Shown here one piece after another: positions 1 through 11,420 of a stretch of DNA of 64,000 bases. How positions within the stretch are numbered: position 1 is the first letter of the stretch; every line of letters starts with the position of its first letter. Origin of the DNA: Escherichia coli (GTDB lineage Bacteria > Pseudomonadota > Gammaproteobacteria > Enterobacterales > Enterobacteriaceae). Position numbers and translations under genes: made by a program. Location: assembly GCF_041248615.1 (NCBI RefSeq), contig NZ_CP158425.1. One strand, written 5' to 3'. The notes under the pieces were generated by a model. It searched no databases and had not been told where the DNA came from. It saw only the letters and a list, made by a program, of their open reading frames with translations.

Positions 1-133
1 GATTGGGTATCGCCGTGCTTCCGATATGTTCAATGGCTACGGCATGAGAACCGAAAAAATGGAGCAATTTTATTTTCTCTTCTTCAAAATTCTTTGTCCA
101 ATCCGGGTTATATTCCATAATTTCAATTTTCAT
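1..133 (-). CDS. GrpB-family protein, N-terminal part only (gene continues beyond window start)
   Basis: Minus-strand ATG at 133-131; translation MKIEIMEYNPDW..FEEEK..IEHIGSTAIP resembles GrpB N-terminus; no ORF-track entry because partial. Confidence 0.4.
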   Translation of the reverse strand, partial: MKIEIMEYNPDWTKNFEEEKIKLLHFFGSHAVAIEHIGSTAIPN

Positions 134-170
134 GATAGTTTCGTCCTTGCCTCAAAAACCATGTTTGGTA

Positions 171-1034
171 TTATACTCCATATCTCTCCGGTGCAGGAAT
201 AGCCTTTTCTGATGCACGGCTAACAGCTTCCCATTCTTCCCAGGTAGCCATCCGTGCTTTTAAGGTATCCATCGCCAAATCGTATACCATGCTGCCAAGG
301 ATAAGCCTCAAAGGCGGATTATTGCTGGCTACTAATTTCATAAGGGCTTCCGCTGCCAAGGAAGGATCACTATCGACCGAATCTTCGGAATACTGTTTCG
401 CCAGCTCATCGCGCAGTGTACCGTATGAATCTAATGGATTGCTGTAACTCATCGAAGTGTATAAATCTGTCCAATATCCTCCTGGTTCCACCATAGTGAG
501 TTTCACTCCGAAATGTTCCGCTTCTTTTGCTAAGGCTTCACTCATTCCTTCCAGCGCAAATTTACTTGCACTGTAAATACCAGACATCGGACCCGAGATA
601 ATAGCGCCAATGCTTGTAATCTGTATGATATGTCCAGAACGCTGCGACCTCAAATAGGGCATCACTGCCTGACAAACCCAAAGAGCTCCAAAAAAGTTTG
701 TGTCCATTAGTTTCCGAGCATCGGATTCGTTTAGTTCTTCAATCATACCCATAGTCATGATACCCGCATTATTAACAACAATATCAAGCCTACCGAAATG
801 TTTAACTGCTGTTTCAACCGTAGAAAAAACAGCCTCCCTATCTGTAACATCGAGGTTTAATGGCAGTAAGCTCTCTTGATATGTTTCTTCTAGCTTCGCC
901 AAATTATCGATAGTCCTTGCAACTGCAACAACTTTATCCCCGGCTTTCAAGGCGGCGCATGTAAAAGCATAGCCAAGCCCCTTGCTTGCTCCGGTAATAA
1001 ACCATACTCTTTTATTTTCGCTATTAGGTATCAT
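171..1034 (-). CDS. short-chain dehydrogenase/reductase (SDR) family oxidoreductase
   Basis: 287 aa ORF with N-terminal TGASKGLG Rossmann motif and YSASK (YxxxK) catalytic motif. Confidence 0.85.
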   Translation of the reverse strand: MIPNSENKRVWFITGASKGLGYAFTCAALKAGDKVVAVARTIDNLAKLEETYQESLLPLNLDVTDREAVFSTVETAVKHFGRLDIVVNNAGIMTMGMIEELNESDARKLMDTNFFGALWVCQAVMPYLRSQRSGHIIQITSIGAIISGPMSGIYSASKFALEGMSEALAKEAEHFGVKLTMVEPGGYWTDLYTSMSYSNPLDSYGTLRDELAKQYSEDSVDSDPSLAAEALMKLVASNNPPLRLILGSMVYDLAMDTLKARMATWEEWEAVSRASEKAIPAPERYGV

Positions 1035-1179
1035 AGATATTCTCCTTTAGGCTATTATAGAAAGATTATTATAAGCGAAATTAATACCGTTAAACGCCAT
1101 GAGCCCGACAATTTTGAGCACTTTGTTTTGTACTCCCAGAAGCTCACCACTACAAATTATCATCAACCCGGTCCTTTTT

Positions 1180-1439
1180 TCAGTCCACTTGCGGTTTCAT
1201 TGTTACTTTGTCATAGCGTCGTGTCAGAATGCGGCAGAGAACAGCGTTTACTATCAACGCAACACCAGACCAGAAAAACCATGTATTAACACCTATAACC
1301 TCAACAACCGGACCTGCAACAAGTAAGCCTATCGGCATAGAAAGAGTCATGGCGGTCATCAAAAGGGAAAACACCTTGCCCATCATTTCAGGGGCAATGC
1401 TTTCTTGAACATAAGCCATAACAGGAACATTCATAAATG
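1180..1439 (-). pseudogene. MFS-type transporter, C-terminal fragment truncated by IS26
   Basis: Hydrophobic C-terminal segment of a transporter-like ORF; reading frame runs into the IS26 terminal repeat at 1440. Confidence 0.5.
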
Positions 1440-2259
1440 GGCACTGTTGCAAAGTTAGCGATGAGGCAGCCTTTTGTCTTATTCAAAGGCCTTACATTTC
1501 AAAAACTCTGCTTACCAGGCGCATTTCGCCCAGGGGATCACCATAATAAAATGCTGAGGCCTGGCCTTTGCGTAGTGCACGCATCACCTCAATACCTTTG
1601 ATGGTGGCGTAAGCCGTCTTCATGGATTTAAATCCCAGCGTGGCGCCGATTATCCGTTTCAGTTTGCCATGATCGCATTCAATCACGTTGTTCCGGTACT
1701 TAATCTGTCGGTGTTCAACGTCAGACGGGCACCGGCCTTCGCGTTTGAGCAGAGCAAGCGCGCGACCATAGGCGGGCGCTTTATCCGTGTTGATGAATCG
1801 CGGGATCTGCCACTTCTTCACGTTGTTGAGGATTTTACCCAGAAACCGGTATGCAGCTTTGCTGTTACGACGGGAGGAGAGATAAAAATCGACAGTGCGG
1901 CCCCGGCTGTCGACGGCCCGGTACAGATACGCCCAGCGGCCATTGACCTTCACGTAGGTTTCATCCATGTGCCACGGGCAAAGATCGGAAGGGTTACGCC
2001 AGTACCAGCGCAGCCGTTTTTCCATTTCAGGCGCATAACGCTGAACCCAGCGGTAAATCGTGGAGTGATCGACATTCACTCCGCGTTCAGCCAGCATCTC
2101 CTGCAGCTCACGGTAACTGATGCCGTATTTGCAGTACCAGCGTACGGCCCACAGAATGATGTCACGCTGAAAATGCCGGCCTTTGAATGGGTTCATGTGC
2201 AGCTCCATCAGCAAAAGGGGATGATAAGTTTATCACCACCGACTATTTGCAACAGTGCC
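1440..2259 (-). mobile_element. IS26 (IS6 family), 820 bp
   Basis: Terminal inverted repeats GGCACTGTTGCAAA at 1440 and complement ending 2259; encloses Tnp26; flanking 8 bp differ (no target-site duplication). Confidence 0.95.
1492..2196 (-). CDS. tnp26: IS26 transposase Tnp26
   Basis: Protein MNPFKGRHFQRDIILWAVRWYCKYGISYRELQEM... matches remembered Tnp26; ORF-track N-terminal extension ignored. Confidence 0.95.
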   Translation of the reverse strand: MNPFKGRHFQRDIILWAVRWYCKYGISYRELQEMLAERGVNVDHSTIYRWVQRYAPEMEKRLRWYWRNPSDLCPWHMDETYVKVNGRWAYLYRAVDSRGRTVDFYLSSRRNSKAAYRFLGKILNNVKKWQIPRFINTDKAPAYGRALALLKREGRCPSDVEHRQIKYRNNVIECDHGKLKRIIGATLGFKSMKTAYATIKGIEVMRALRKGQASAFYYGDPLGEMRLVSRVFEM

Positions 2260-2605
2260 CCTGCGGGTTCTGACTGGAAAGGGCGCTCAGATCGACACCA
2301 CGACTGCGTCCGGTCGCATGGTGTTCGGAATCTTCGCCACCTTGGCCGAGTTCGAGCGGGATCTGATCCGAGAGCGCACCATGGCGGGTCTCGCCTCCGC
2401 GAGAGCGCGCGGTCGCAAGGGCGGACGAAAATTCGCGCTCACCAAAGCTCAGGTGCGTCTCGCGCAAGCCGCCATGGCCCAGCGCGATACTTCAGTTTCC
2501 GATCTCTGCAAGGAACTCGGCATCGAGCGCGTCACTCTCTACCGATATGTCGGTCCCAAAGGCGAGCTCAGAGACCATGGAAAGCATGTTCTCGGACTTA
2601 CGTAG
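2260..2605 (+). pseudogene. tnpR: Tn5393 resolvase tnpR, 3' fragment (5' end removed by IS26)
   Basis: 346 bp identical in translation to the 3' part of the intact tnpR at 11075-11420; begins directly at the IS26 boundary. Confidence 0.9.
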
Positions 2606-2669
2606 TGGACTTGCCTCGGTTTCGTTCCGGTCTTTTTGAGAGCATTATTTGTTATCAAGGAGACCATAT

Positions 2670-2945
2670 ATGTCATTAAAGCATAGTGATGAATTTAAGC
2701 GTGATGCAGTTCGCATAGCACTCACTAGTGGCTTAACACGCCGTCAAGTTGCGTCAGATTTAAGTATTGGGCTTTCCACGCTTGGGAAATGGATCGCATC
2801 AATTTCCGATGAAACTAAAATTCCTACCCAAGACACTGATCTTCTGCGTGAGAATGAACGTTTACGCAAAGAGAACCGTATCCTTCGGGAGGAGAGGGAG
2901 ATATTAAAAAAGGCAGCAATATTTTTCGCAGTACAAAAGCTGTGA
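2670..2945 (+). CDS. IS1133 transposase OrfA (helix-turn-helix)
   Basis: IS3-family OrfA-like protein with leucine-zipper C-terminus; ATG at 2670 preceded by AAGGAG. Confidence 0.8.
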   Translation: MSLKHSDEFKRDAVRIALTSGLTRRQVASDLSIGLSTLGKWIASISDETKIPTQDTDLLRENERLRKENRILREEREILKKAAIFFAVQKL

Positions 2946-3799
2946 GATTTCAGTTTATTACGGATTACCGTGGCTCTCTCTCACGTTCACGCATATGTCG
3001 TTTGATGGGCGTAACAGATCGTGGTTTACGTGCATGGAAACGCCGTCCTCCATCACTGCGCCAGCGTCGTGATCTTATACTTCTAGCGCATATACGTGAG
3101 CAGCATCGGTTGTGTTTGGGGAGCTATGGTAGGCCGCGTATGACAGAAGAGTTGAAAGCGCTGGGCCTGCAGGTTGGGCAGCGTCGGGTTGGACGTTTGA
3201 TGCGCCAGAATAACATTACAGTTGTTCGAACGCGTAAATTCAAACGGACAACGGATAGTCATCATACCTTCAACATTGCACCGAACCTATTAAAACAAGA
3301 CTTTAGCGCAAGCGCACCCAACCAGAAATGGGCAGGCGATATCACTTATGTTTGGACCAGAGAAGGATGGGTCTATCTTGCTGTTATCCTTGACCTGTAT
3401 TCCCGTCGCGTGATTGGCTGGGCAACAGGTGATCGATTAAAGCAGGATCTTGCATTAAGGGCACTGAATATGGCGTTGGCTTTACGCAAACCACCACCGG
3501 GTTGTATTCAACACACAGACCGTGGGAGCCAATATTGCGCTCATGAATATCAAAAGCTACTGCTCAAACATCAATTGCTGCCGTCCATGAGCGGGAAAGG
3601 CAATTGTTTTGATAACTCCGCAGTAGAAAGCTTCTTTAAATCATTAAAGGCTGAGTTGATTTGGCGCAGACACTGGCAAACAAGGCGAGATATTGAGATT
3701 GCAATCTTCGAATATATAAATGGCTTTTATAATCCACGCCGAAGACATTCAACACTCGGCTGGAAATCGCCGGTGGCATTTGAGAAAAAAGCCGCTTAA
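2942..3799 (+). CDS. IS1133 transposase OrfB (integrase core, DDE)
   Basis: 285 aa ORF overlapping OrfA in typical IS3 frameshift arrangement; DITYV...integrase core. Confidence 0.85.
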   Translation: MRFQFITDYRGSLSRSRICRLMGVTDRGLRAWKRRPPSLRQRRDLILLAHIREQHRLCLGSYGRPRMTEELKALGLQVGQRRVGRLMRQNNITVVRTRKFKRTTDSHHTFNIAPNLLKQDFSASAPNQKWAGDITYVWTREGWVYLAVILDLYSRRVIGWATGDRLKQDLALRALNMALALRKPPPGCIQHTDRGSQYCAHEYQKLLLKHQLLPSMSGKGNCFDNSAVESFFKSLKAELIWRRHWQTRRDIEIAIFEYINGFYNPRRRHSTLGWKSPVAFEKKAA

Positions 3800-3905
3800 A
3801 ATGAGAGATAGACCGGAACACAACCGGTGCAAGTCCATAGCAACTCGTTTCTTTTCGCAGGTTGAGCCACCTCCGCGCTTCATCAGAAAACTGAAGGAAC
3901 CTCCA

Positions 3906-4709
3906 TTGAATCGAACTAATATTTTTTTTGGTGAATCGCATTCTGACTGGTTGCCTGTCAGAGGCGGAGAATCTGGTGATTTTGTTTTTCGACGTGGTGA
4001 CGGGCATGCCTTCGCGAAAATCGCACCTGCTTCCCGCCGCGGTGAGCTCGCTGGAGAGCGTGACCGCCTCATTTGGCTCAAAGGTCGAGGTGTGGCTTGC
4101 CCCGAGGTCATCAACTGGCAGGAGGAACAGGAGGGTGCATGCTTGGTGATAACGGCAATTCCGGGAGTACCGGCGGCTGATCTGTCTGGAGCGGATTTGC
4201 TCAAAGCGTGGCCGTCAATGGGGCAGCAACTTGGCGCTGTTCACAGCCTATCGGTTGATCAATGTCCGTTTGAGCGCAGGCTGTCGCGAATGTTCGGACG
4301 CGCCGTTGATGTGGTGTCCCGCAATGCCGTCAATCCCGACTTCTTACCGGACGAGGACAAGAGTACGCCGCAGCTCGATCTTTTGGCTCGTGTCGAACGA
4401 GAGCTACCGGTGCGGCTCGACCAAGAGCGCACCGATATGGTTGTTTGCCATGGTGATCCCTGCATGCCGAACTTCATGGTGGACCCTAAAACTCTTCAAT
4501 GCACGGGTCTGATCGACCTTGGGCGGCTCGGAACAGCAGATCGCTATGCCGATTTGGCACTCATGATTGCTAACGCCGAAGAGAACTGGGCAGCGCCAGA
4601 TGAAGCAGAGCGCGCCTTCGCTGTCCTATTCAATGTATTGGGGATCGAAGCCCCCGACCGCGAACGCCTTGCCTTCTATCTGCGATTGGACCCTCTGACT
4701 TGGGGTTGA
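3906..4709 (+). CDS. strA: aminoglycoside 3''-phosphotransferase APH(3'')-Ib (streptomycin resistance)
   Basis: Protein from NRTNIFFGESHSDWLPVRGG... to ...LRLDPLTWG matches StrA; TTG start at 3906; ORF-track upstream extension not coding. Confidence 0.95.
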   Translation: MNRTNIFFGESHSDWLPVRGGESGDFVFRRGDGHAFAKIAPASRRGELAGERDRLIWLKGRGVACPEVINWQEEQEGACLVITAIPGVPAADLSGADLLKAWPSMGQQLGAVHSLSVDQCPFERRLSRMFGRAVDVVSRNAVNPDFLPDEDKSTPQLDLLARVERELPVRLDQERTDMVVCHGDPCMPNFMVDPKTLQCTGLIDLGRLGTADRYADLALMIANAEENWAAPDEAERAFAVLFNVLGIEAPDRERLAFYLRLDPLTWG

Positions 4710-5545
4710 TGTTCATGCCGCCTGTTTTTCCTGCTCATTGGCACGTTTCGCAACCTGTTCTCATTGCGGACACCTTTTCCAGCCTCGTTTGGAAAGTTTC
4801 ATTGCCAGACGGGACTCCTGCAATCGTCAAGGGATTGAAACCTATAGAAGACATTGCTGATGAACTGCGCGGGGCCGACTATCTGGTATGGCGCAATGGG
4901 AGGGGAGCAGTCCGGTTGCTCGGTCGTGAGAACAATCTGATGTTGCTCGAATATGCCGGGGAGCGAATGCTCTCTCACATCGTTGCCGAGCACGGCGACT
5001 ACCAGGCGACCGAAATTGCAGCGGAACTAATGGCGAAGCTGTATGCCGCATCTGAGGAACCCCTGCCTTCTGCCCTTCTCCCGATCCGGGATCGCTTTGC
5101 AGCTTTGTTTCAGCGGGCGCGCGATGATCAAAACGCAGGTTGTCAAACTGACTACGTCCACGCGGCGATTATAGCCGATCAAATGATGAGCAATGCCTCG
5201 GAACTGCGTGGGCTACATGGCGATCTGCATCATGAAAACATCATGTTCTCCAGTCGCGGCTGGCTGGTGATAGATCCCGTCGGTCTGGTCGGTGAAGTGG
5301 GCTTTGGCGCCGCCAATATGTTCTACGATCCGGCTGACAGAGACGACCTTTGTCTCGATCCTAGACGCATTGCACAGATGGCGGACGCATTCTCTCGTGC
5401 GCTGGACGTCGATCCGCGTCGCCTGCTCGACCAGGCGTACGCTTATGGGTGCCTTTCCGCAGCTTGGAACGCGGATGGAGAAGAGGAGCAACGCGATCTA
5501 GCTATCGCGGCCGCGATCAAGCAGGTGCGACAGACGTCATACTAG
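4709..5545 (+). CDS. strB: aminoglycoside 6-phosphotransferase APH(6)-Id (streptomycin resistance)
   Basis: Protein MFMPPVFPAHWHVSQPVLIADTFSS... matches StrB; start overlaps strA stop (TGATG). Confidence 0.95.
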   Translation: MFMPPVFPAHWHVSQPVLIADTFSSLVWKVSLPDGTPAIVKGLKPIEDIADELRGADYLVWRNGRGAVRLLGRENNLMLLEYAGERMLSHIVAEHGDYQATEIAAELMAKLYAASEEPLPSALLPIRDRFAALFQRARDDQNAGCQTDYVHAAIIADQMMSNASELRGLHGDLHHENIMFSSRGWLVIDPVGLVGEVGFGAANMFYDPADRDDLCLDPRRIAQMADAFSRALDVDPRRLLDQAYAYGCLSAAWNADGEEEQRDLAIAAAIKQVRQTSY

Positions 5546-5570
5546 ATATCAAGCGACTTCTCCTATCCCC

Positions 5571-5651
5571 TGGGAACACATCAATCTTACCGGAGAATAT
5601 CGTTGGCCAAAGCCTTAGCGTAGGATTTCGCCCTCTCCCGCAAACGACCCC
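5571..5651. repeat. Tn5393 81-bp terminal inverted repeat (IRR)
   Basis: Reverse complement aligns with the IRL at 7762-7842 with a few mismatches. Confidence 0.85.
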
Positions 5652-5880
5652 TTTATTGTAGGTGGGCCAGTTGGTGATTTTGAACTTTTGCTTTGCCACG
5701 GAACGGTCTGCGTTGTCGGGAAGATGCGTGATCTGATCCTTCAACTCAGCAAAAGTTCGATTTATTCAACAAATCCACGTTGTGTCTCAAAATCTCTGAT
5801 GTTACATTGCACAAGATAAAAATATATCATCATGAACAATAAAACTGTCTGCTTACATAAACAGTAATACAAGGGGTGTT

Positions 5881-6696
5881 ATGAGCCATATTCAACGGGA
5901 AACGTCTTGCTCGAGGCCGCGATTAAATTCCAACCTGGATGCTGATTTATATGGGTATAAATGGGCTCGCGATAATGTCGGGCAATCAGGTGCGACAATC
6001 TATCGATTGTATGGGAAGCCCGATGCGCCAGAGTTGTTTCTGAAACATGGCAAAGGTAGCGTTGCCAATGATGTTACAGATGAGATGGTCAGACTAAACT
6101 GGCTGACGGCATTTATGCCTCTTCCGACCATCAAGCATTTTATCCGTACTCCTGATGATGCATGGTTACTCACCACTGCGCTCCCCGGGAAAACAGCATT
6201 CCAGGTATTAGAAGAATATCCTGATTCAGGTGAAAATATTGTTGATGCGCTGGCAGCGTTCCTGCGCCGGTTGCATTCGATTCCTGTTAGTAATTGTCCT
6301 TTTAACAGCGATCGCGTATTTCGTCTCGCTCAGGCGCAATCACGAATGAATAACGGTTTGGTTGATGCGAGTGATTTTGATGACGAGCGTAATGGCTGGC
6401 CTGTTGAACAAGTCTGGAAAGAAATGCATAAGCTTTTGCCATTCTCACCGGATTCAGTCGTCACTCATGGTGATTTCTCACTTGATAACCTTATTTTTGA
6501 CGAGGGGAAATTAATAGGTTGTATTGATGTTGGACGAGTCGGAATCGCAGACCGATACCAGGATCTTGCCATCCTATGGAACTGCCTCGGTGAATTTTCT
6601 CCTTCATTACAGAAACGGCTTTTTCAAAAATATGGTATTGATAATCCTGATATGAATAAATTGCAGTTTCATTTGATGCTCGATGAGTTTTTCTGA
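5881..6696 (+). CDS. aph(3')-Ia: aminoglycoside 3'-phosphotransferase APH(3')-Ia (kanamycin/neomycin resistance)
   Basis: Protein MSHIQRETSCSRPRLNSNLDADLYGYKWARDNVGQSGATIYRLYGK...; upstream leader matches Tn903-type aphA1 context. Confidence 0.95.
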   Translation: MSHIQRETSCSRPRLNSNLDADLYGYKWARDNVGQSGATIYRLYGKPDAPELFLKHGKGSVANDVTDEMVRLNWLTAFMPLPTIKHFIRTPDDAWLLTTALPGKTAFQVLEEYPDSGENIVDALAAFLRRLHSIPVSNCPFNSDRVFRLAQAQSRMNNGLVDASDFDDERNGWPVEQVWKEMHKLLPFSPDSVVTHGDFSLDNLIFDEGKLIGCIDVGRVGIADRYQDLAILWNCLGEFSPSLQKRLFQKYGIDNPDMNKLQFHLMLDEFF

Positions 6697-6849: not shown

Positions 6850-7758
6850 TCACCCACGCACTTCTCCATGAAATTTAGCATCGTCGCGGTTAATGTCGAA
6901 AATTTGCCACCTGACGTGGTTGGCATCGAGGGTGAAAACTGCCGTGGCGAGGGTGTTCTCCTCATCCGGATCGTCGGCAGCCAGCCGGTAAATTGGCAGT
7001 TCTGCGTCATGGGTATCTGAGAGAATGGTTTTTGCCGCCGCGGCGTCAAACGGAGGTTGCGTTTCCCGCCACTGCACGAGGCGTAACTGCCGCGACGCTG
7101 AACTGTCGGTAACGATCTGCTCAACGCCAGCCAGTGCCGCATGCACCAGATGGTTGGCATGCCCGGTTACCGTCGTCAGGGGTAGAACGGAACAGCCTTG
7201 ACCGGTGGCCTCAACGCTGAACAGCCGCGCATCGCCCAGCTGCCCGAGCGTATGGTGAAACGCCCCGGATCGCGGCTGGCCGGTAAGTATAGTGATGGCC
7301 TCGTCGAGGGTGTTCGCATTCAGCGAGGCGCGAGCCAGGATCTGACGCGGTAATCCCTGCGGACGATACACTGCACGGATGTTATTCACCGTGTTAACGA
7401 TACCTTTTTCATTTACCGCAAAGGTGTGGCCGCAAATCGACCCCGGATAGGCAAAACTCGTAAAGCTCAGACCGCGACTCGGAGTAATGGTAGCCAGCAA
7501 GCATTCATCCCGTAACTGAGGAAAACCGTCTTCATTATGCGCGATAATCCGCTCGCCTGCGGCGTTTACCCCGGCCACCGTCGTACAGCCATCCGACGTT
7601 GAGCGCACCAGATCGCCACGGCAGTTCCAGGCAAAGACCTGATCAACAGTGGCCTCCAGTCCCTGCGCCAGCCCCTCCAGCTCCTGCCAGATGTGCGGAT
7701 AATGCCGCTGCACCTCGGCGCGCATTAACCGGGTCTCAGGGGATGCCTGCAGGGTCAT
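6850..7758 (-). CDS. C45-family autoproteolytic acyltransferase/hydrolase-like protein (tentative)
   Basis: About 302 aa; DGCTTV motif resembles the Gly-Cys self-cleavage site of acyl-CoA:6-APA acyltransferase-like enzymes; ends 3 bp before Tn5393 IRL. Confidence 0.5.
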   Translation of the reverse strand: MTLQASPETRLMRAEVQRHYPHIWQELEGLAQGLEATVDQVFAWNCRGDLVRSTSDGCTTVAGVNAAGERIIAHNEDGFPQLRDECLLATITPSRGLSFTSFAYPGSICGHTFAVNEKGIVNTVNNIRAVYRPQGLPRQILARASLNANTLDEAITILTGQPRSGAFHHTLGQLGDARLFSVEATGQGCSVLPLTTVTGHANHLVHAALAGVEQIVTDSSASRQLRLVQWRETQPPFDAAAAKTILSDTHDAELPIYRLAADDPDEENTLATAVFTLDANHVRWQIFDINRDDAKFHGEVRG

Positions 7759-7761
7759 CAC

Positions 7762-7842
7762 GGGGTCGTTTGCGGGAGGGGGCGGAATCCTACGCTAAGG
7801 CTTTGGCCAGCGATATTCTCCGGTGAGATTGATGTGTTCCCA
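7762..7842. repeat. Tn5393 81-bp terminal inverted repeat (IRL)
   Basis: GGGGTCGTTTGCGGGAGGGGGCGGAATCCTACGCTAAGG...; tnpA reading frame terminates inside it. Confidence 0.85.
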
Positions 7843-10680
7843 TCCGAGCGGCGAAACATGGGCCAAGAGATCGGGCGATAGCAGCTTTCCATCGCGTTTC
7901 TGGTTTGCAACGACCTCGCCGAGCTTCATGGTGTTCCAGAAGATGATGATGGCGGCGAGCAGATTCATGCCGGCGATGCGGTAATGCTGGCCTTCGGCGG
8001 AACGGTCGCGGATTTCACCGCGGCGGTGGAAGCTGATTGCCCGCTTCAGCGCATGATGAGCTTCGCCTTTGTTGAGCCCGATCTGGGCACGCCGTTGGAG
8101 TTCGGCATCCAGAATCCAGTCGATCATGAACAGGGTGCGCTCGACGCGACCGACTTCCCGCAGGGCTGTCGCGAGCTCGTTCTGCCGCGGATAGGAGGCG
8201 AGTTTCCGCAGAATCTGGCTTGGCGCGACGGTCCCGGCAGCAATGGTGGCGGCGATGCGCAGGATGTCGGGCCAATTGCGCTCGATCATGGCTTGGTTGA
8301 CCTTTCCGCCGATCAACGCTCGCAGGTGCGCCGGGGCGGCCGACGGATTGAACGCGTAGAGCCGTTTGGATGGCAGGTCGCGGATGCGCGGAGCGAACCG
8401 GTAGCCGAGAATGGCACATGCGGCAAAGACGTGATCGGTGAAGCCGCCCGTGTCGGTGAACTGCTCGCGGATATGGCGTCCAGCATCGTTCATCAGCAGG
8501 CCATCGAGGATGTAAGGCGCTTCGCTTGCCGTTGCAGGAATCACCTGGGTTGCGAACGGCGCATATTGGTCGGAGACGTGGCTATAGGCTTTCAGGCCCG
8601 GGGTATTGCCATATTTCGCGTTGACCAGGTTCATGGCCTCACCTTGCTCTGTAGCGACGAAGAACTGTCCGTCGCTCGAAGCCGACGTGCCCATGCCCCA
8701 GAACCGGGCCATGGGTAACGCTGCCTGTGCCTCGACCACCATGGCCAGCGCCCGGTCATAGGCTTCGCCCTCGACATGCCACCGTCCAATGCGGATCAAT
8801 TCCCAGAAGGTGTGGGTGTTTGTCGCATCCGCCATTTTGCGCAAGCCGAGGTTGATCCCTTCCGCCAAGATAACGTTCATTAGCCCGATCCGGTCAGCGC
8901 AGGGTGCTCCTGTGCGCAGATGGGTGAACGCTTCGGTGAAGCCGGTCGCCGCATCCACCTCCAGCAGGAGATCGGTGATGCGCGTGGGCGGGATCTGCTT
9001 GTAGAGATCGAGCACCAGATCTTCGGCGCCTGTCGGCGCGGCGGCTTCGAGTTTCTCGATATGCAGAACGCCGTTTTCAATCGACCCGCCCGGGATCGTG
9101 CCTGCGCGAGCGGCACGGCCAAGCTCGCGCAACCGCATGTCGAGGCGAGCTTGCCGGTCTGCCAGCCATTCCTCCGGCCGCAATGGCACAGCGAGACGAC
9201 CGCCTTCCGCGATGGATTGTGCCGGAACGAGTGCGTGTTTCAGATCGCCATAGCGCCGGGACCTAGTAAGCCAGACATCTCCGGAGCGGAACGCATCGCG
9301 CAGATGGAACAGCACCGCGATCTCCCATAGGCGAGCGTCGCCAGCCCTCTGGGCCCGAAGGTGGCGATGCCATTTCGAGCTGGGCCGCAAGAAGCTGGTC
9401 ATCGCGGCATCGTTCAAACCGGTACGAAGGGCCGTCACCGCTTCCAGAAGCGGCAGTGCAACGGGCGCAGCTCGCAGATCGAGCAGGCGCAACATGCGTG
9501 GAGCGTATCGGCGGAAGCGGTGATAACCGTCGAGCACATGATTGAGCGGATCGTCGGCCATGGTGGCGGTCAGCCTGGTTGCCATTGCAACAAGGGTTTT
9601 TAAGCCGTCCCACCCTGACCCACTCGCGATGACATCGCCCAGCGGCTGGCCATCATCCTGTGCATCGACCAGGGCGCCCCCGATCTCGGCGAAGGATTTC
9701 AGGGTGTCACGCACCACCCCCGCTTCGTCTGCGACCTTTGCATGGCAAATACGCTCCGAAGCACGGTAGAGACGGCCGACGATCCGGTCGTGGGTTTCGA
9801 CCACTGCGTCGGCCAACATCGCCTGCCATTCCGAGACGCAAACAGCCAAGATCGCAAGCCGCCTGTCCTCCGGGAGATCGCGCATGCCGTCGGCATAATA
9901 CCGTTCACCCTGCCTGCGCAGACGAGTCACCCGATGGGCAGGAACGCCGGCAAGCAGATCCTCGGGGAGATCGATGCGTTGCAGATATTCGAGCCGGTCG
10001 AGCAGCCGGTTGGCCGACGAAGAGTTCGAGCCAGGCTCGAACTGGCGCAGCCACACAAAACGGGTCACCCGATCATCAGCCGTCTCCTCGAGCAATGCCA
10101 GCAACTGTTCTCGGATCGACATAGGCAGCCGACTGGCGATCCTCGTCTCGATGCGTCGCTCGGCATCGACGAGAGCCGCGGCACAAAGCCGCTCGATCGT
10201 GGATGTCGCGGGAAGGACAGTGCGGGTGCGTCGGCACTCGGCTACGAAGCGACGGGCGATATCCTCGTTCGACACCGCCATCTCGGCTTCTCGGAACAAC
10301 CATTCCTTCAGCTCGCTCGCACCACGTCCGGAGAAGGTGCGGAAGCCGTAGAGCCCCCGTAACTCGGCAAGATGCTCGTGCCGTGTTTCCTCGCGGGCAG
10401 CATAGTCTACGAGATCGTCGGCACCCAGGCCAAGCTGCGCTCCGATAAATTCGATGACCTCTGCAGGGATCAGTTCGCCTGGAGCCAGCACCCGGCCGGG
10501 ATAGCGCAGGACACACAATTGCAGGGCGAAGCCGAACCTGTTGTGAGCGCGCCGACGCAGCCTGATATGCCCAAGGTCTTCATCACTCAGCGTATAGTGC
10601 TTGAGCAAATCCGTCTGTGAAGTCGGCAAGCGCAACAGCGCGTCTTTCTGCCGATCGGTTAGAGTGACGCGACGCGGCAT
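7795..10680 (-). CDS. tnpA: Tn3-family transposase TnpA of Tn5393
   Basis: 961 aa ORF typical of Tn3-family transposases; divergent from tnpR. Confidence 0.95.
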   Translation of the reverse strand: MPRRVTLTDRQKDALLRLPTSQTDLLKHYTLSDEDLGHIRLRRRAHNRFGFALQLCVLRYPGRVLAPGELIPAEVIEFIGAQLGLGADDLVDYAAREETRHEHLAELRGLYGFRTFSGRGASELKEWLFREAEMAVSNEDIARRFVAECRRTRTVLPATSTIERLCAAALVDAERRIETRIASRLPMSIREQLLALLEETADDRVTRFVWLRQFEPGSNSSSANRLLDRLEYLQRIDLPEDLLAGVPAHRVTRLRRQGERYYADGMRDLPEDRRLAILAVCVSEWQAMLADAVVETHDRIVGRLYRASERICHAKVADEAGVVRDTLKSFAEIGGALVDAQDDGQPLGDVIASGSGWDGLKTLVAMATRLTATMADDPLNHVLDGYHRFRRYAPRMLRLLDLRAAPVALPLLEAVTALRTGLNDAAMTSFLRPSSKWHRHLRAQRAGDARLWEIAVLFHLRDAFRSGDVWLTRSRRYGDLKHALVPAQSIAEGGRLAVPLRPEEWLADRQARLDMRLRELGRAARAGTIPGGSIENGVLHIEKLEAAAPTGAEDLVLDLYKQIPPTRITDLLLEVDAATGFTEAFTHLRTGAPCADRIGLMNVILAEGINLGLRKMADATNTHTFWELIRIGRWHVEGEAYDRALAMVVEAQAALPMARFWGMGTSASSDGQFFVATEQGEAMNLVNAKYGNTPGLKAYSHVSDQYAPFATQVIPATASEAPYILDGLLMNDAGRHIREQFTDTGGFTDHVFAACAILGYRFAPRIRDLPSKRLYAFNPSAAPAHLRALIGGKVNQAMIERNWPDILRIAATIAAGTVAPSQILRKLASYPRQNELATALREVGRVERTLFMIDWILDAELQRRAQIGLNKGEAHHALKRAISFHRRGEIRDRSAEGQHYRIAGMNLLAAIIIFWNTMKLGEVVANQKRDGKLLSPDLLAHVSPLGWEHINLTGEYRWPKP

Positions 10681-10805
10681 ACATGTTCCTTTTTCAAAAT
10701 CTGATAGCGTTCAAGACGCTTTGTTTATGAAGCTGGTTGAGATACATTTCCAGAGGTCAATGCAATCGTGGCCGAAGCGCCGCCTCAAACCAACGTTTGT
10801 GATAC
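10681..10805. promoter_or_regulatory. res site / divergent tnpA-tnpR promoter region of Tn5393
   Basis: 125-bp intergenic region between divergently transcribed tnpA and tnpR, the usual position of res in Tn3-family elements. Confidence 0.6.
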
Positions 10806-11420
10806 ATGCTGATCGGATATGCCCGCGTCTCCAAAGCCGATGGCTCGCAGTCTCTCGACCTGCAGCACGACGCCTTGCGCGCCGCAGGTGTCGAACGGGA
10901 CAATATCTATGATGATCTTGCTTCCGGCGGTCGTGATGATCGCCCTGGCTTGACTGCCTGCCTCAAGTCATTGCGTGACGGCGATGTGCTGGTGGTCTGG
11001 AAGCTCGATCGCCTCGGACGATCGCTTGCCCATCTGGTCAACACGGTGAAGGAGCTGTCAGACCGCAAGATCGGCCTGCGGGTTCTGACTGGAAAGGGCG
11101 CTCAGATCGACACCACGACTGCGTCCGGTCGCATGGTGTTCGGAATCTTCGCCACCTTGGCCGAGTTCGAGCGGGATCTGATCCGAGAGCGCACCATGGC
11201 GGGTCTCGCCTCCGCGAGAGCGCGCGGTCGCAAGGGCGGACGAAAATTCGCGCTCACCAAAGCTCAGGTGCGTCTCGCGCAAGCCGCCATGGCCCAGCGC
11301 GATACTTCAGTTTCCGATCTCTGCAAGGAACTCGGCATCGAGCGCGTCACTCTCTACCGATATGTCGGTCCCAAAGGCGAGCTCAGAGACCATGGAAAGC
11401 ATGTTCTCGGACTTACGTAG
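10806..11420 (+). CDS. tnpR: Tn5393 resolvase TnpR (serine recombinase)
   Basis: 204 aa; N-terminal MLIGYARVSKADGSQSLDLQ serine-recombinase motif; C-terminal helix-turn-helix. Confidence 0.95.
   Translation: MLIGYARVSKADGSQSLDLQHDALRAAGVERDNIYDDLASGGRDDRPGLTACLKSLRDGDVLVVWKLDRLGRSLAHLVNTVKELSDRKIGLRVLTGKGAQIDTTTASGRMVFGIFATLAEFERDLIRERTMAGLASARARGRKGGRKFALTKAQVRLAQAAMAQRDTSVSDLCKELGIERVTLYRYVGPKGELRDHGKHVLGLT

Follow-up and report, generated by a model that had tools for sequence, protein, structure and literature searches.

The first 1,439 nucleotides of the 64,000-nucleotide stretch of Escherichia coli DNA analysed here (contig NZ_CP158425.1; "the window") form the distal end of the sul3 module, which in class 1 integrons of the sul3 type takes the place of the usual 3'-conserved segment. 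With high confidence, we read them as a module tail in which mef(B) was cut by an IS26-mediated loss of 1,367 bp, most likely through adjacent deletion. The resulting structure, ΔmefB:260bp-IS26, is an ordinary and already published IS26 deletion scar of the sul3 module.

The left end of the window belongs to a sul3 module

All coding sequence in the segment lies on the minus strand and comprises the start of a GrpB-family gene, an intact gene for an SDR oxidoreductase and the 3' end of an MFS transporter gene, bordered by IS26 (Table 1). At 42.5%, the GC content of the segment is below that of IS26 (52.4%) and that of the window as a whole (47.9%).

Table 1. Features at the left end of the window, with the evidence for each assignment.
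Feature	Position	Strand	Evidence or remarks
5' part of the grpB pseudogene, codons 1-44 ("orf1/orfA")	1..133	-	Pfam GrpB PF04229, positions 1-39 of 159, 41.7 bits
Intact 287-aa classical SDR oxidoreductase ("orf2/orfB")	171..1034	-	adh_short PF00106, 172 bits; PRK08263, 464 bits
mef(B)-SDR spacer, 145 bp	1035..1179	-	Weak promoter-like site at 1093-1065, from a consensus scan only and not evidence of function
ΔmefB:260bp, 3' remnant of mef(B)	1180..1439	-	2 nt + 85 codons + stop
Complete IS26, 820 bp	1440..2259	-	14-bp terminal inverted repeats GGCACTGTTGCAAA / TTTGCAACAGTGCC, read directly
IS26 transposase, 234 aa	2196..1495	-	DDE_Tnp_IS240 match, 164 bits
ΔtnpR, 3' fragment of a resolvase gene cut by the other IS26 end	2260..2605	+	Pfam Resolvase, positions 102-145 of 145, plus HTH

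Bases 1-25000 of the window are 100% identical to positions 128001-153000 of NZ_LT599829.1, the 238-kb plasmid p14408_M1 of E. coli NRZ14408, typed as IncHI2A. Immediately to the left of window base 1, this plasmid carries intI1-estX-HAD hydrolase(psp)-aadA2-cmlA1-aadA1-qacL-IS256-family transposase(IS440)-sul3, and sul3 is followed by an 81-aa ORF annotated as "GrpB family protein", the SDR gene, the mef(B) fragment and IS26. The GrpB ORF is partial in the window because the left window edge runs through it. Directly beyond grpB, outside the window, NZ_LT599829.1 contains sul3, IS440 and a class 1 integron without the usual 3'-CS, and the GrpB remnant and the SDR gene, the two ORFs that separate sul3 from mef(B), share the same strand. 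The order of the module is intI1 - cassettes - qacL - IS440 - sul3 - ΔgrpB - SDR - ΔmefB:260bp - IS26.

The segment is widespread. It matched 967 plasmids in PLSDB (at least 80% of the segment covered in 945), with an identity of at least 99% in 962 of the 967 and of 100% in hundreds of Enterobacterales plasmids. Hosts were mostly Escherichia, Salmonella and Klebsiella, and the matching regions were annotated as GrpB / SDR / mef(B). The carriers were IncHI2, IncF, IncI, IncC and other plasmids, and the segment was always situated within resistance regions.

The array tnp440-sul3-orfA-orfB-ΔmefB:260bp-IS26 was reported by Reid et al. 2017 (PMC5761274), who described "260 bp of mefB truncated by IS26", found an identical array in pCAZ590 and proposed IS26-mediated mefB deletions as tracking signatures; mef(B) was first described by Liu et al. 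2009, as cited in PMC5761274. In its two ORFs, the 260-bp remnant and the junction with IS26, the window is identical to pCAZ590 and to the porcine E. coli integrons (g)/(h) of that study, and p14408_M1 additionally shares with those integrons the estX-psp-aadA2-cmlA1-aadA1-qacL(qacI/H) cassette array. Compared with the published module, only the DNA beyond IS26, here ΔtnpR-IS1133-strAB, varies between plasmids. The first-pass annotation of the window did not name this published scar.

mef(B) is truncated at the IS26 junction

The MFS gene fragment matched positions 325-409 of the 409 positions of the NCBIfam model NF000051 Mef(B) (E 3e-55; 187.8 bits, against a curated cutoff of 800). What the window holds is a gene fragment only and not a full-length 409-aa Mef(B) scoring above that cutoff, and 1180-1439 contains no complete reading frame for a transporter. 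The remnant is 100% identical to the same part of the intact mef(B) (409 codons) of plasmid p14EC029c (NZ_CP024144.1), and base-level comparison with this copy placed the break between mef(B) and IS26 exactly between positions 1439 and 1440. Across the break, p14EC029c reads ...TCATAAATG/TGCCAGAGG and the window reads ...TCATAAATG/GGCACTGTTG, where the sequence after the break is the IS26 repeat, GGCACTG. Exactly 260 bp of the mef(B) 3' end lie directly against the terminal inverted repeat of IS26. When a 300-bp probe across the ΔmefB/IS26 break was compared with PLSDB, this junction was found in 606 of 72,556 plasmids.

With its 820-bp length, 14-bp inverted repeats and single 234-aa DDE transposase, the insertion sequence is a complete IS26, and it is annotated as such in NZ_LT599829.1. 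The first-pass annotation had proposed a transporter gene cut by IS26, with the last 85 or so codons remaining, which agrees with the 85 codons and stop codon identified here as Mef(B) 325-409. It had also named what would speak against this, namely that the segment is ordinary plasmid backbone and that the short ORF, here of 85-90 codons, is an intact small gene. Such a reading could draw on a 90-aa ORF at 1180..1452 in the ORF list, with a TTG start inside IS26. However, this TTG sits within the IS26 inverted repeat, and the ORF is collinear with Mef(B) residues 325-409 and with the full gene, which is complete in 102 PLSDB plasmids. The lower GC content of the segment relative to the window and its occurrence on several plasmid types, always in resistance regions, also count against plasmid backbone. 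Given the Mef(B) match, the intact gene in 102 plasmids and the junction in p14EC029c, we regard an intact backbone gene as ruled out for practical purposes.

The remnant has neither a start codon nor a promoter and amounts to about a fifth of the 409-residue MFS transporter; for this reason, macrolide efflux by Mef(B) has presumably been lost in the window copy. The earlier suggestion that the original function of the block was lost or altered would hold for the efflux activity of the transporter. In a consensus scan, no hybrid promoter formed with IS26 was detected that would read into ΔmefB/SDR.

The intact form and the route of the deletion

The first-pass annotation had recommended a BLAST search for an intact version, and one exists: mef(B) is complete in 102 PLSDB plasmids, with IS26 located 397 bp upstream. 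In p14EC029c, where these 397 bp precede the mef(B) ATG, IS26 faces the gene with the end and orientation that it also has in the window, and this end is at position 10807. Relative to this plasmid, the window lacks 1,367 bp (p14EC029c positions 9440-10806), corresponding to mef(B) codons 1-324 and the 397-bp leader, which includes 95 bp of the 3' end of ISCR28. The remainder, consisting of sul3, ΔgrpB, the SDR gene and the 260 bp at the 3' end of mef(B), is 100% identical between the two forms. The intact form, with its 1,367 additional bp, is the rarer one, the 102 plasmids comparing with ~606 that carry the 260-bp scar. Because the intact form has the same IS26 end in the same orientation 397 bp upstream of the gene, we attribute the loss of the 1,367 bp to IS26.

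In the ancestral form, mef(B) would accordingly have been complete, and IS26 would have lain 397 bp ahead of the start codon. IS26 would then have taken out the adjoining 1,367 bp, that is, the leader and codons 1-324, most likely through a single intramolecular replicative transposition into mef(B), which amounts to an adjacent deletion. After this event, the same IS26 end would abut codon 325; the SDR gene would be left intact, and grpB would already have been a pseudogene before the deletion. For the transposition chemistry we infer from established IS26 biology: adjacent deletion by intramolecular replicative transposition is established behaviour of this element, as are IS26 pairs and the loss of translocatable units.

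No 8-bp target duplication is present around the IS26 of the window, where the flanks are CATAAATG and CCTGCGGG. This absence fits a history of deletion or recombination rather than a simple insertion. Deletion variants point to the same process. Among 800 mef(B)-positive plasmids, the majority have a remnant of 257-260 bp, and rarer remnants of 887, ~248, 108, 63 and 47 bp occur elsewhere; a 111-bp remnant is described in PMC5761274. The breakpoints of these variants differ from that of the window copy. IS26 appears to have advanced from the 5' side of mef(B) toward sul3 in each of them, and the 260-bp variant is by far the commonest. The several lengths indicate that IS26 generated deletions repeatedly from the same side.

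A two-step route is a somewhat unlikely alternative to adjacent deletion. Here, a second IS26 would have inserted at codon 324/325 of mef(B) with an 8-bp duplication, and subsequent recombination between the direct IS26 copies, either homologous or Tnp26-mediated, would have excised the 1,367 bp and one IS26 as a translocatable unit. Judged by the sequence, the product would be the same as that of the one-step deletion, namely a single IS26 in the same orientation without a target duplication, and many of the plasmids do carry several IS26 copies. The intermediate, a mef(B) split by IS26 with its 5' part retained, was nevertheless not found among the matches listed, and adjacent deletion is the simpler of the two routes. 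We therefore favour the one-step adjacent deletion.

On its other side, IS26 has cut tnpR, and the annotation downstream of ΔtnpR comprises IS1133, aph(3'')-Ib and aph(6)-Id (strA-strB). Because ΔtnpR-IS1133-strA-strB lies on this side, two unrelated resistance segments meet at IS26. What stands to the right of IS26 is not the same in the two plasmids compared, being aph(3')-Ia in p14EC029c and ΔtnpR-IS1133-strAB in the window. The one-step scheme is therefore not traceable in a single lineage, and further IS26 events occurred.

The SDR gene and the grpB pseudogene

The SDR translation contains the cofactor motif TGASKGLG (TGxxxGxG) and the catalytic motif YSASK (YxxxK) of a classical SDR, and its PRK08263 score compares with an NCBIfam cutoff of 290 bits. 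The gene is intact and 100% conserved across plasmids, and the protein is 97% identical in amino acids to proteins of Oscillibacter ruminantium and Clostridia MAGs. It may still be expressed.

The grpB gene, separated from the SDR gene by 37 bp, is in a different state. Compared with a full-length 178-aa GrpB gene on a Clostridia MAG contig (L018), the plasmid version lacks 1 bp at nt 188, with the annotated 81-aa ORF as the result, and its homology to the full gene stops at ~codon 100 of 178, a 3' truncation. A complete GrpB domain of ~160 residues in one frame is not present, and grpB was frameshifted and truncated in every plasmid copy examined. With the 1-bp deletion and the cut at ~codon 100, the plasmid grpB is a pseudogene. 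The same-strand arrangement of the SDR and GrpB genes noted in the first-pass annotation is correct, with both on the minus strand (171-1034 and 1-133), and the two are best read as passenger genes captured together with mef(B).

A Clostridial counterpart of the block

Species-representative genomes were scanned with the SDR protein, and the hits were then compared with the plasmid block at the nucleotide level. Two Clostridia MAG contigs (L018 and L007) contain the mef(B) leader, mef(B), SDR and grpB over 2,790 bp at 96.7% and 96.6% nucleotide identity. A 959-kb scaffold of O. ruminantium GH1 (L006) and a Bacillota MAG (L005) match over 2,523 bp at 95.4%, both ending just after the SDR gene. 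On L018, DUF4180 is followed in order by mef(B), SDR, full-length GrpB and GNAT. Upstream are genes for an APH-family kinase, an ANT(2'')-like protein fused to a CPT-like kinase, a hexapeptide acetyltransferase and, by reading of the translation, a flavodoxin-like ORF; a type IV coupling protein is encoded nearby. The O. ruminantium island is bounded by a tyrosine integrase on one side and a type IV coupling protein of the L018 type on the other; given these flanks, it may be the accessory region of an integrative conjugative element. The collinearity of the plasmid genes was likely inherited from a Clostridial donor.

The first-pass annotation had raised the possibility that the genes are remnants of a small accessory operon combining efflux with a modifying enzyme. 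One part of this idea finds an echo, since the three genes are collinear in the likely Clostridial donor. They are co-directional in the plasmids as well as on L018 and L007, with spacers of 145 bp and 37 bp; the native island is rich in resistance-type enzymes (the APH kinase, the ANT(2'')-like/CPT-like fusion, the hexapeptide acetyltransferase and GNAT), and the SDR gene has stayed intact and invariant across plasmids. The linkage is not kept in more distant SDR homologues, however. Adjacency of mef(B) and SDR occurred only in near-identical copies of one segment (L005, L006, L007, L018, L037 and L097), and linkage only in copies with at least 95% nucleotide identity, which is not the pattern of a conserved operon. 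No Mef(B)-like or GrpB neighbour was found beside SDR homologues at 68-90% identity, those at 81-90% included. In O. ruminantium, nucleotide homology stops right after the SDR gene and a different, shorter GrpB-family ORF follows. On the plasmid side, the degraded state of grpB in all copies examined speaks against an operon, and some plasmids without any mef(B) keep the SDR gene simply as it sits between IS26 and sul3. Family searches (Pfam and NCBIfam) did not tie the SDR to antibiotic modification or a drug substrate. An operon of efflux and modifying enzyme is thus unsupported, though not disproved, and we consider it very improbable that mef(B)-SDR-GrpB is a functional accessory operon whose remaining genes still confer an altered resistance function.

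ISCR28 ends flank the intact block

Beyond the window, mef(B)-SDR-ΔgrpB in the intact module has one copy of a perfect 95-bp direct repeat on each side (p14EC029c positions 7539-7633 and 10712-10806). The copy on the sul3 side is longer, at ~290 bp; at its start, the terminal 15 nt of a transposase gene are fused directly to grpB codon ~100. In Tn1548-type regions, this sequence is found again at 97-97.5% identity, immediately before armA and just past ΔISEc28. An ISEc28 end was considered as the origin of the 243-bp sequence common to the regions upstream of sul3 and armA and was rejected, the ISEc28 transposase ORF stopping 57 bp before it, so that the 243-bp segment was taken to begin right after the end of ISEc28; ISEc28 is simply inserted beside the shared segment.

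Copies in other genomes connect the repeat to a transposase. A Treponema MAG (L037) has a copy of 77% identity, preceded by an ORF fragment with a match to the C-terminus of the ISCR1 transposase (BLASTP E 6e-12); no Pfam domain matched in the Treponema ORF fragments. The terminal 19-mer GAAATGACAGTTCCTATCA was present in >120 metagenome contigs, many from sludge or digesters as judged from their names. In several of these contigs, a complete 430-aa transposase of the IS91/ISCR family, with the domains Zn_Tnp_IS91 and Y2_Tnp, precedes the segment (97-98.6% identity), and this transposase is found at 99.8-100% identity upstream of rmtE2 (pS68), rmtE1 (CP082410.1) and armA (pSY153-MDR). The element was named ISCR28 in the pSY153-MDR paper (PMC5620268) and is called "ISCR20-like" in the rmtE literature (PMC10132066).

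The intact module consequently reads IS26 / ΔISCR28(95 bp) - mef(B) - SDR - ΔgrpB / ΔISCR28(~290 bp) - sul3. Between the ISCR28 end and the start of detectable homology to the Clostridial sequences, the plasmid block has 57-98 bp. Neither ISCR28 remnant is present in the window itself: IS26 has deleted one, and the other is located to the left of base 1. A sandwich of the form ISCR28-armA-ΔISCR28 has reportedly been described by Yuan et al. 2024. The module resembles the ISCR28-armA-ΔISCR28 "sandwich" of pSY153-MDR (PMC5620268) in that an identical 3' (oriIS-side) end of ISCR28 stands on either side of mef(B)-SDR-ΔgrpB; sul3 follows the second of these ends, and armA and rmtE follow the same terminus, ...GAAATGACAGTTCCTATCA. 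Unlike in the armA sandwich, both ISCR28 copies of the sul3 module are remnants, of 95 bp and ~290 bp, without a transposase. In metagenomes, the terminus also precedes Sul3-like genes (81% and 60%) and Erm(42)-like genes.

We tentatively propose, as a possibility somewhat short of even, that ISCR28, a rolling-circle element, lifted mef(B)-SDR-grpB' from a gut or rumen Clostridia (Oscillospiraceae-like) island and served as a common vehicle bringing several low-GC resistance genes into Proteobacteria. The proposed donor island is flanked by integrase and conjugation genes, and the ISCR28 family is abundant in anaerobic-digester and sludge communities. The links of ISCR28 to armA and rmtE are already published. 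A link between ISCR28 and sul3 or mef(B) did not appear to be made in any of the open-access papers found on ISCR20, ISCR28 and sul3 with oriIS, and PMC13041382 does not mention mef.

Implications

The scar provides a published signature for tracking sul3 integrons across animal, food and human Enterobacterales, and it identifies a lineage of the sul3 module that has been very successful. For the plasmid in the window, it would mean that Mef(B)-type macrolide efflux is absent, though resistance-gene callers flag "mef(B)". Potentially new material is confined to the context outside the window, namely the likely Clostridial source and ISCR28 as a shared vehicle. If unreported, the Clostridial counterpart (95-97%) of the whole block and the ISCR28 ends before sul3 would matter modestly for the origins of resistance genes. 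Should the proposed transfer be true, mef(B) would gain a donor lineage, and ISCR28 would be a vehicle shared by mef(B), sul3, armA and rmtE.

ISCR28 ends around the mef(B) block

In the intact sul3 module of NZ_CP024144.1 (L001), a perfect 95-bp direct repeat was found on either side of the mef(B)-SDR-ΔgrpB block. These repeats are the 3' (oriIS-side) ends of ISCR28, and the sul3 leader follows directly after the second copy. The window holds neither of them: one was lost to the IS26 deletion, and its partner falls outside, left of base 1.

The same ISCR28 terminus, ...GAAATGACAGTTCCTATCA, was located directly upstream of armA in Tn1548 and pSY153-MDR, and directly upstream of rmtE2 (pS68) and rmtE1 (CP082410.1). 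In Tn1548, the shared segment begins 57 bp past the ISEc28 transposase stop, and we therefore take ISEc28 to interrupt the upstream part.

Features and their coordinates in the window and in other sequences
Feature	Location	Strand	Remark
95-bp repeat copies	L001 7539-7633, 10712-10806
Extended repeat copy	L001 about 7542-7834
ISCR28 terminus	L003 (NZ_CP095567.1) 4001-4243; L206 (pSY153-MDR) 4001-5608; L204/L205 7286-7574
Predicted 90-aa ORF	window 1180-1452	-	TTG start
Tn5393-derived segment	window 2260-6696
Clostridial island features	L018 2707-5955, 9451-9981; L006 833-2080, 11107-12930
mef(B)/SDR with ISCR28-like end	L037 5902-6499, 6499-8344; L097 457-3055		L097, 568-kb contig
Tandem oriIS-end arrays	L127 11256-11406; L099 1531-1761; L119 6327-6640; L122 1120-1398
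Tet(M/W/O)-type gene, ISCR28, Erm(42)-like gene	L163 5-1966, 2979-4271, 4640-5539
Sul3-like proteins	L152 9037-9822; L087 532-1320; L126 2447-3229

The IS26 junction in the window

Beyond IS26, the window continues with a Tn5393-derived segment, which is joined to the sul3 module by IS26 only. A resolvase gene is cut by this other IS26 end, leaving ΔtnpR, and is followed by IS1133 and then by aph(3'')-Ib/aph(6)-Id (strAB) and aph(3')-Ia. On the mef(B) side, the start codon of the predicted ORF was observed within the IS26 inverted repeat, from which the frame runs into the C-terminal fragment of Mef(B).

mef(B) in Clostridia and Treponema

The mef(B)-bearing island of a Clostridia MAG contig (L018) and an Oscillibacter ruminantium GH1 scaffold (L006) is crowded with resistance-type enzymes: an APH-family kinase, an ANT(2'')-like protein fused to a CPT-like kinase, a hexapeptide acetyltransferase and a GNAT. 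A tyrosine integrase lies on one side of it and a T4SS coupling protein on the other, an arrangement that suggests integrative conjugative element cargo.

In a Treponema sp. MAG (L037) and in L097, a diverged ISCR28-like 3' end precedes mef(B) and a portion of the SDR gene, which are 99.9% identical to the Clostridia allele. Here the junction lies 175 bp nearer mef(B) than in the E. coli plasmids; this suggests that the capture or deletion in spirochaetes was an independent one.

ISCR28-like ends and linked genes in metagenomes

Several metagenome contigs carry the terminal 19-mer and 50-110 bp of an ISCR28-like end in two to five tandem copies with irregular spacing. On another contig (L163), an intact ISCR28 adjoins a Tet(M/W/O)-type ribosomal protection gene and the gene of an Erm(42)-like methyltransferase, which scored 481 bits, below the 600-bit cutoff. 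Sul3-like proteins are encoded on three further contigs. One (81% amino acid identity) has its gene immediately behind an ISCR28-like end that is 77% identical, and the other two show 60% identity. These proteins are possibly relatives or precursors of sul3 tied to the same ISCR family.
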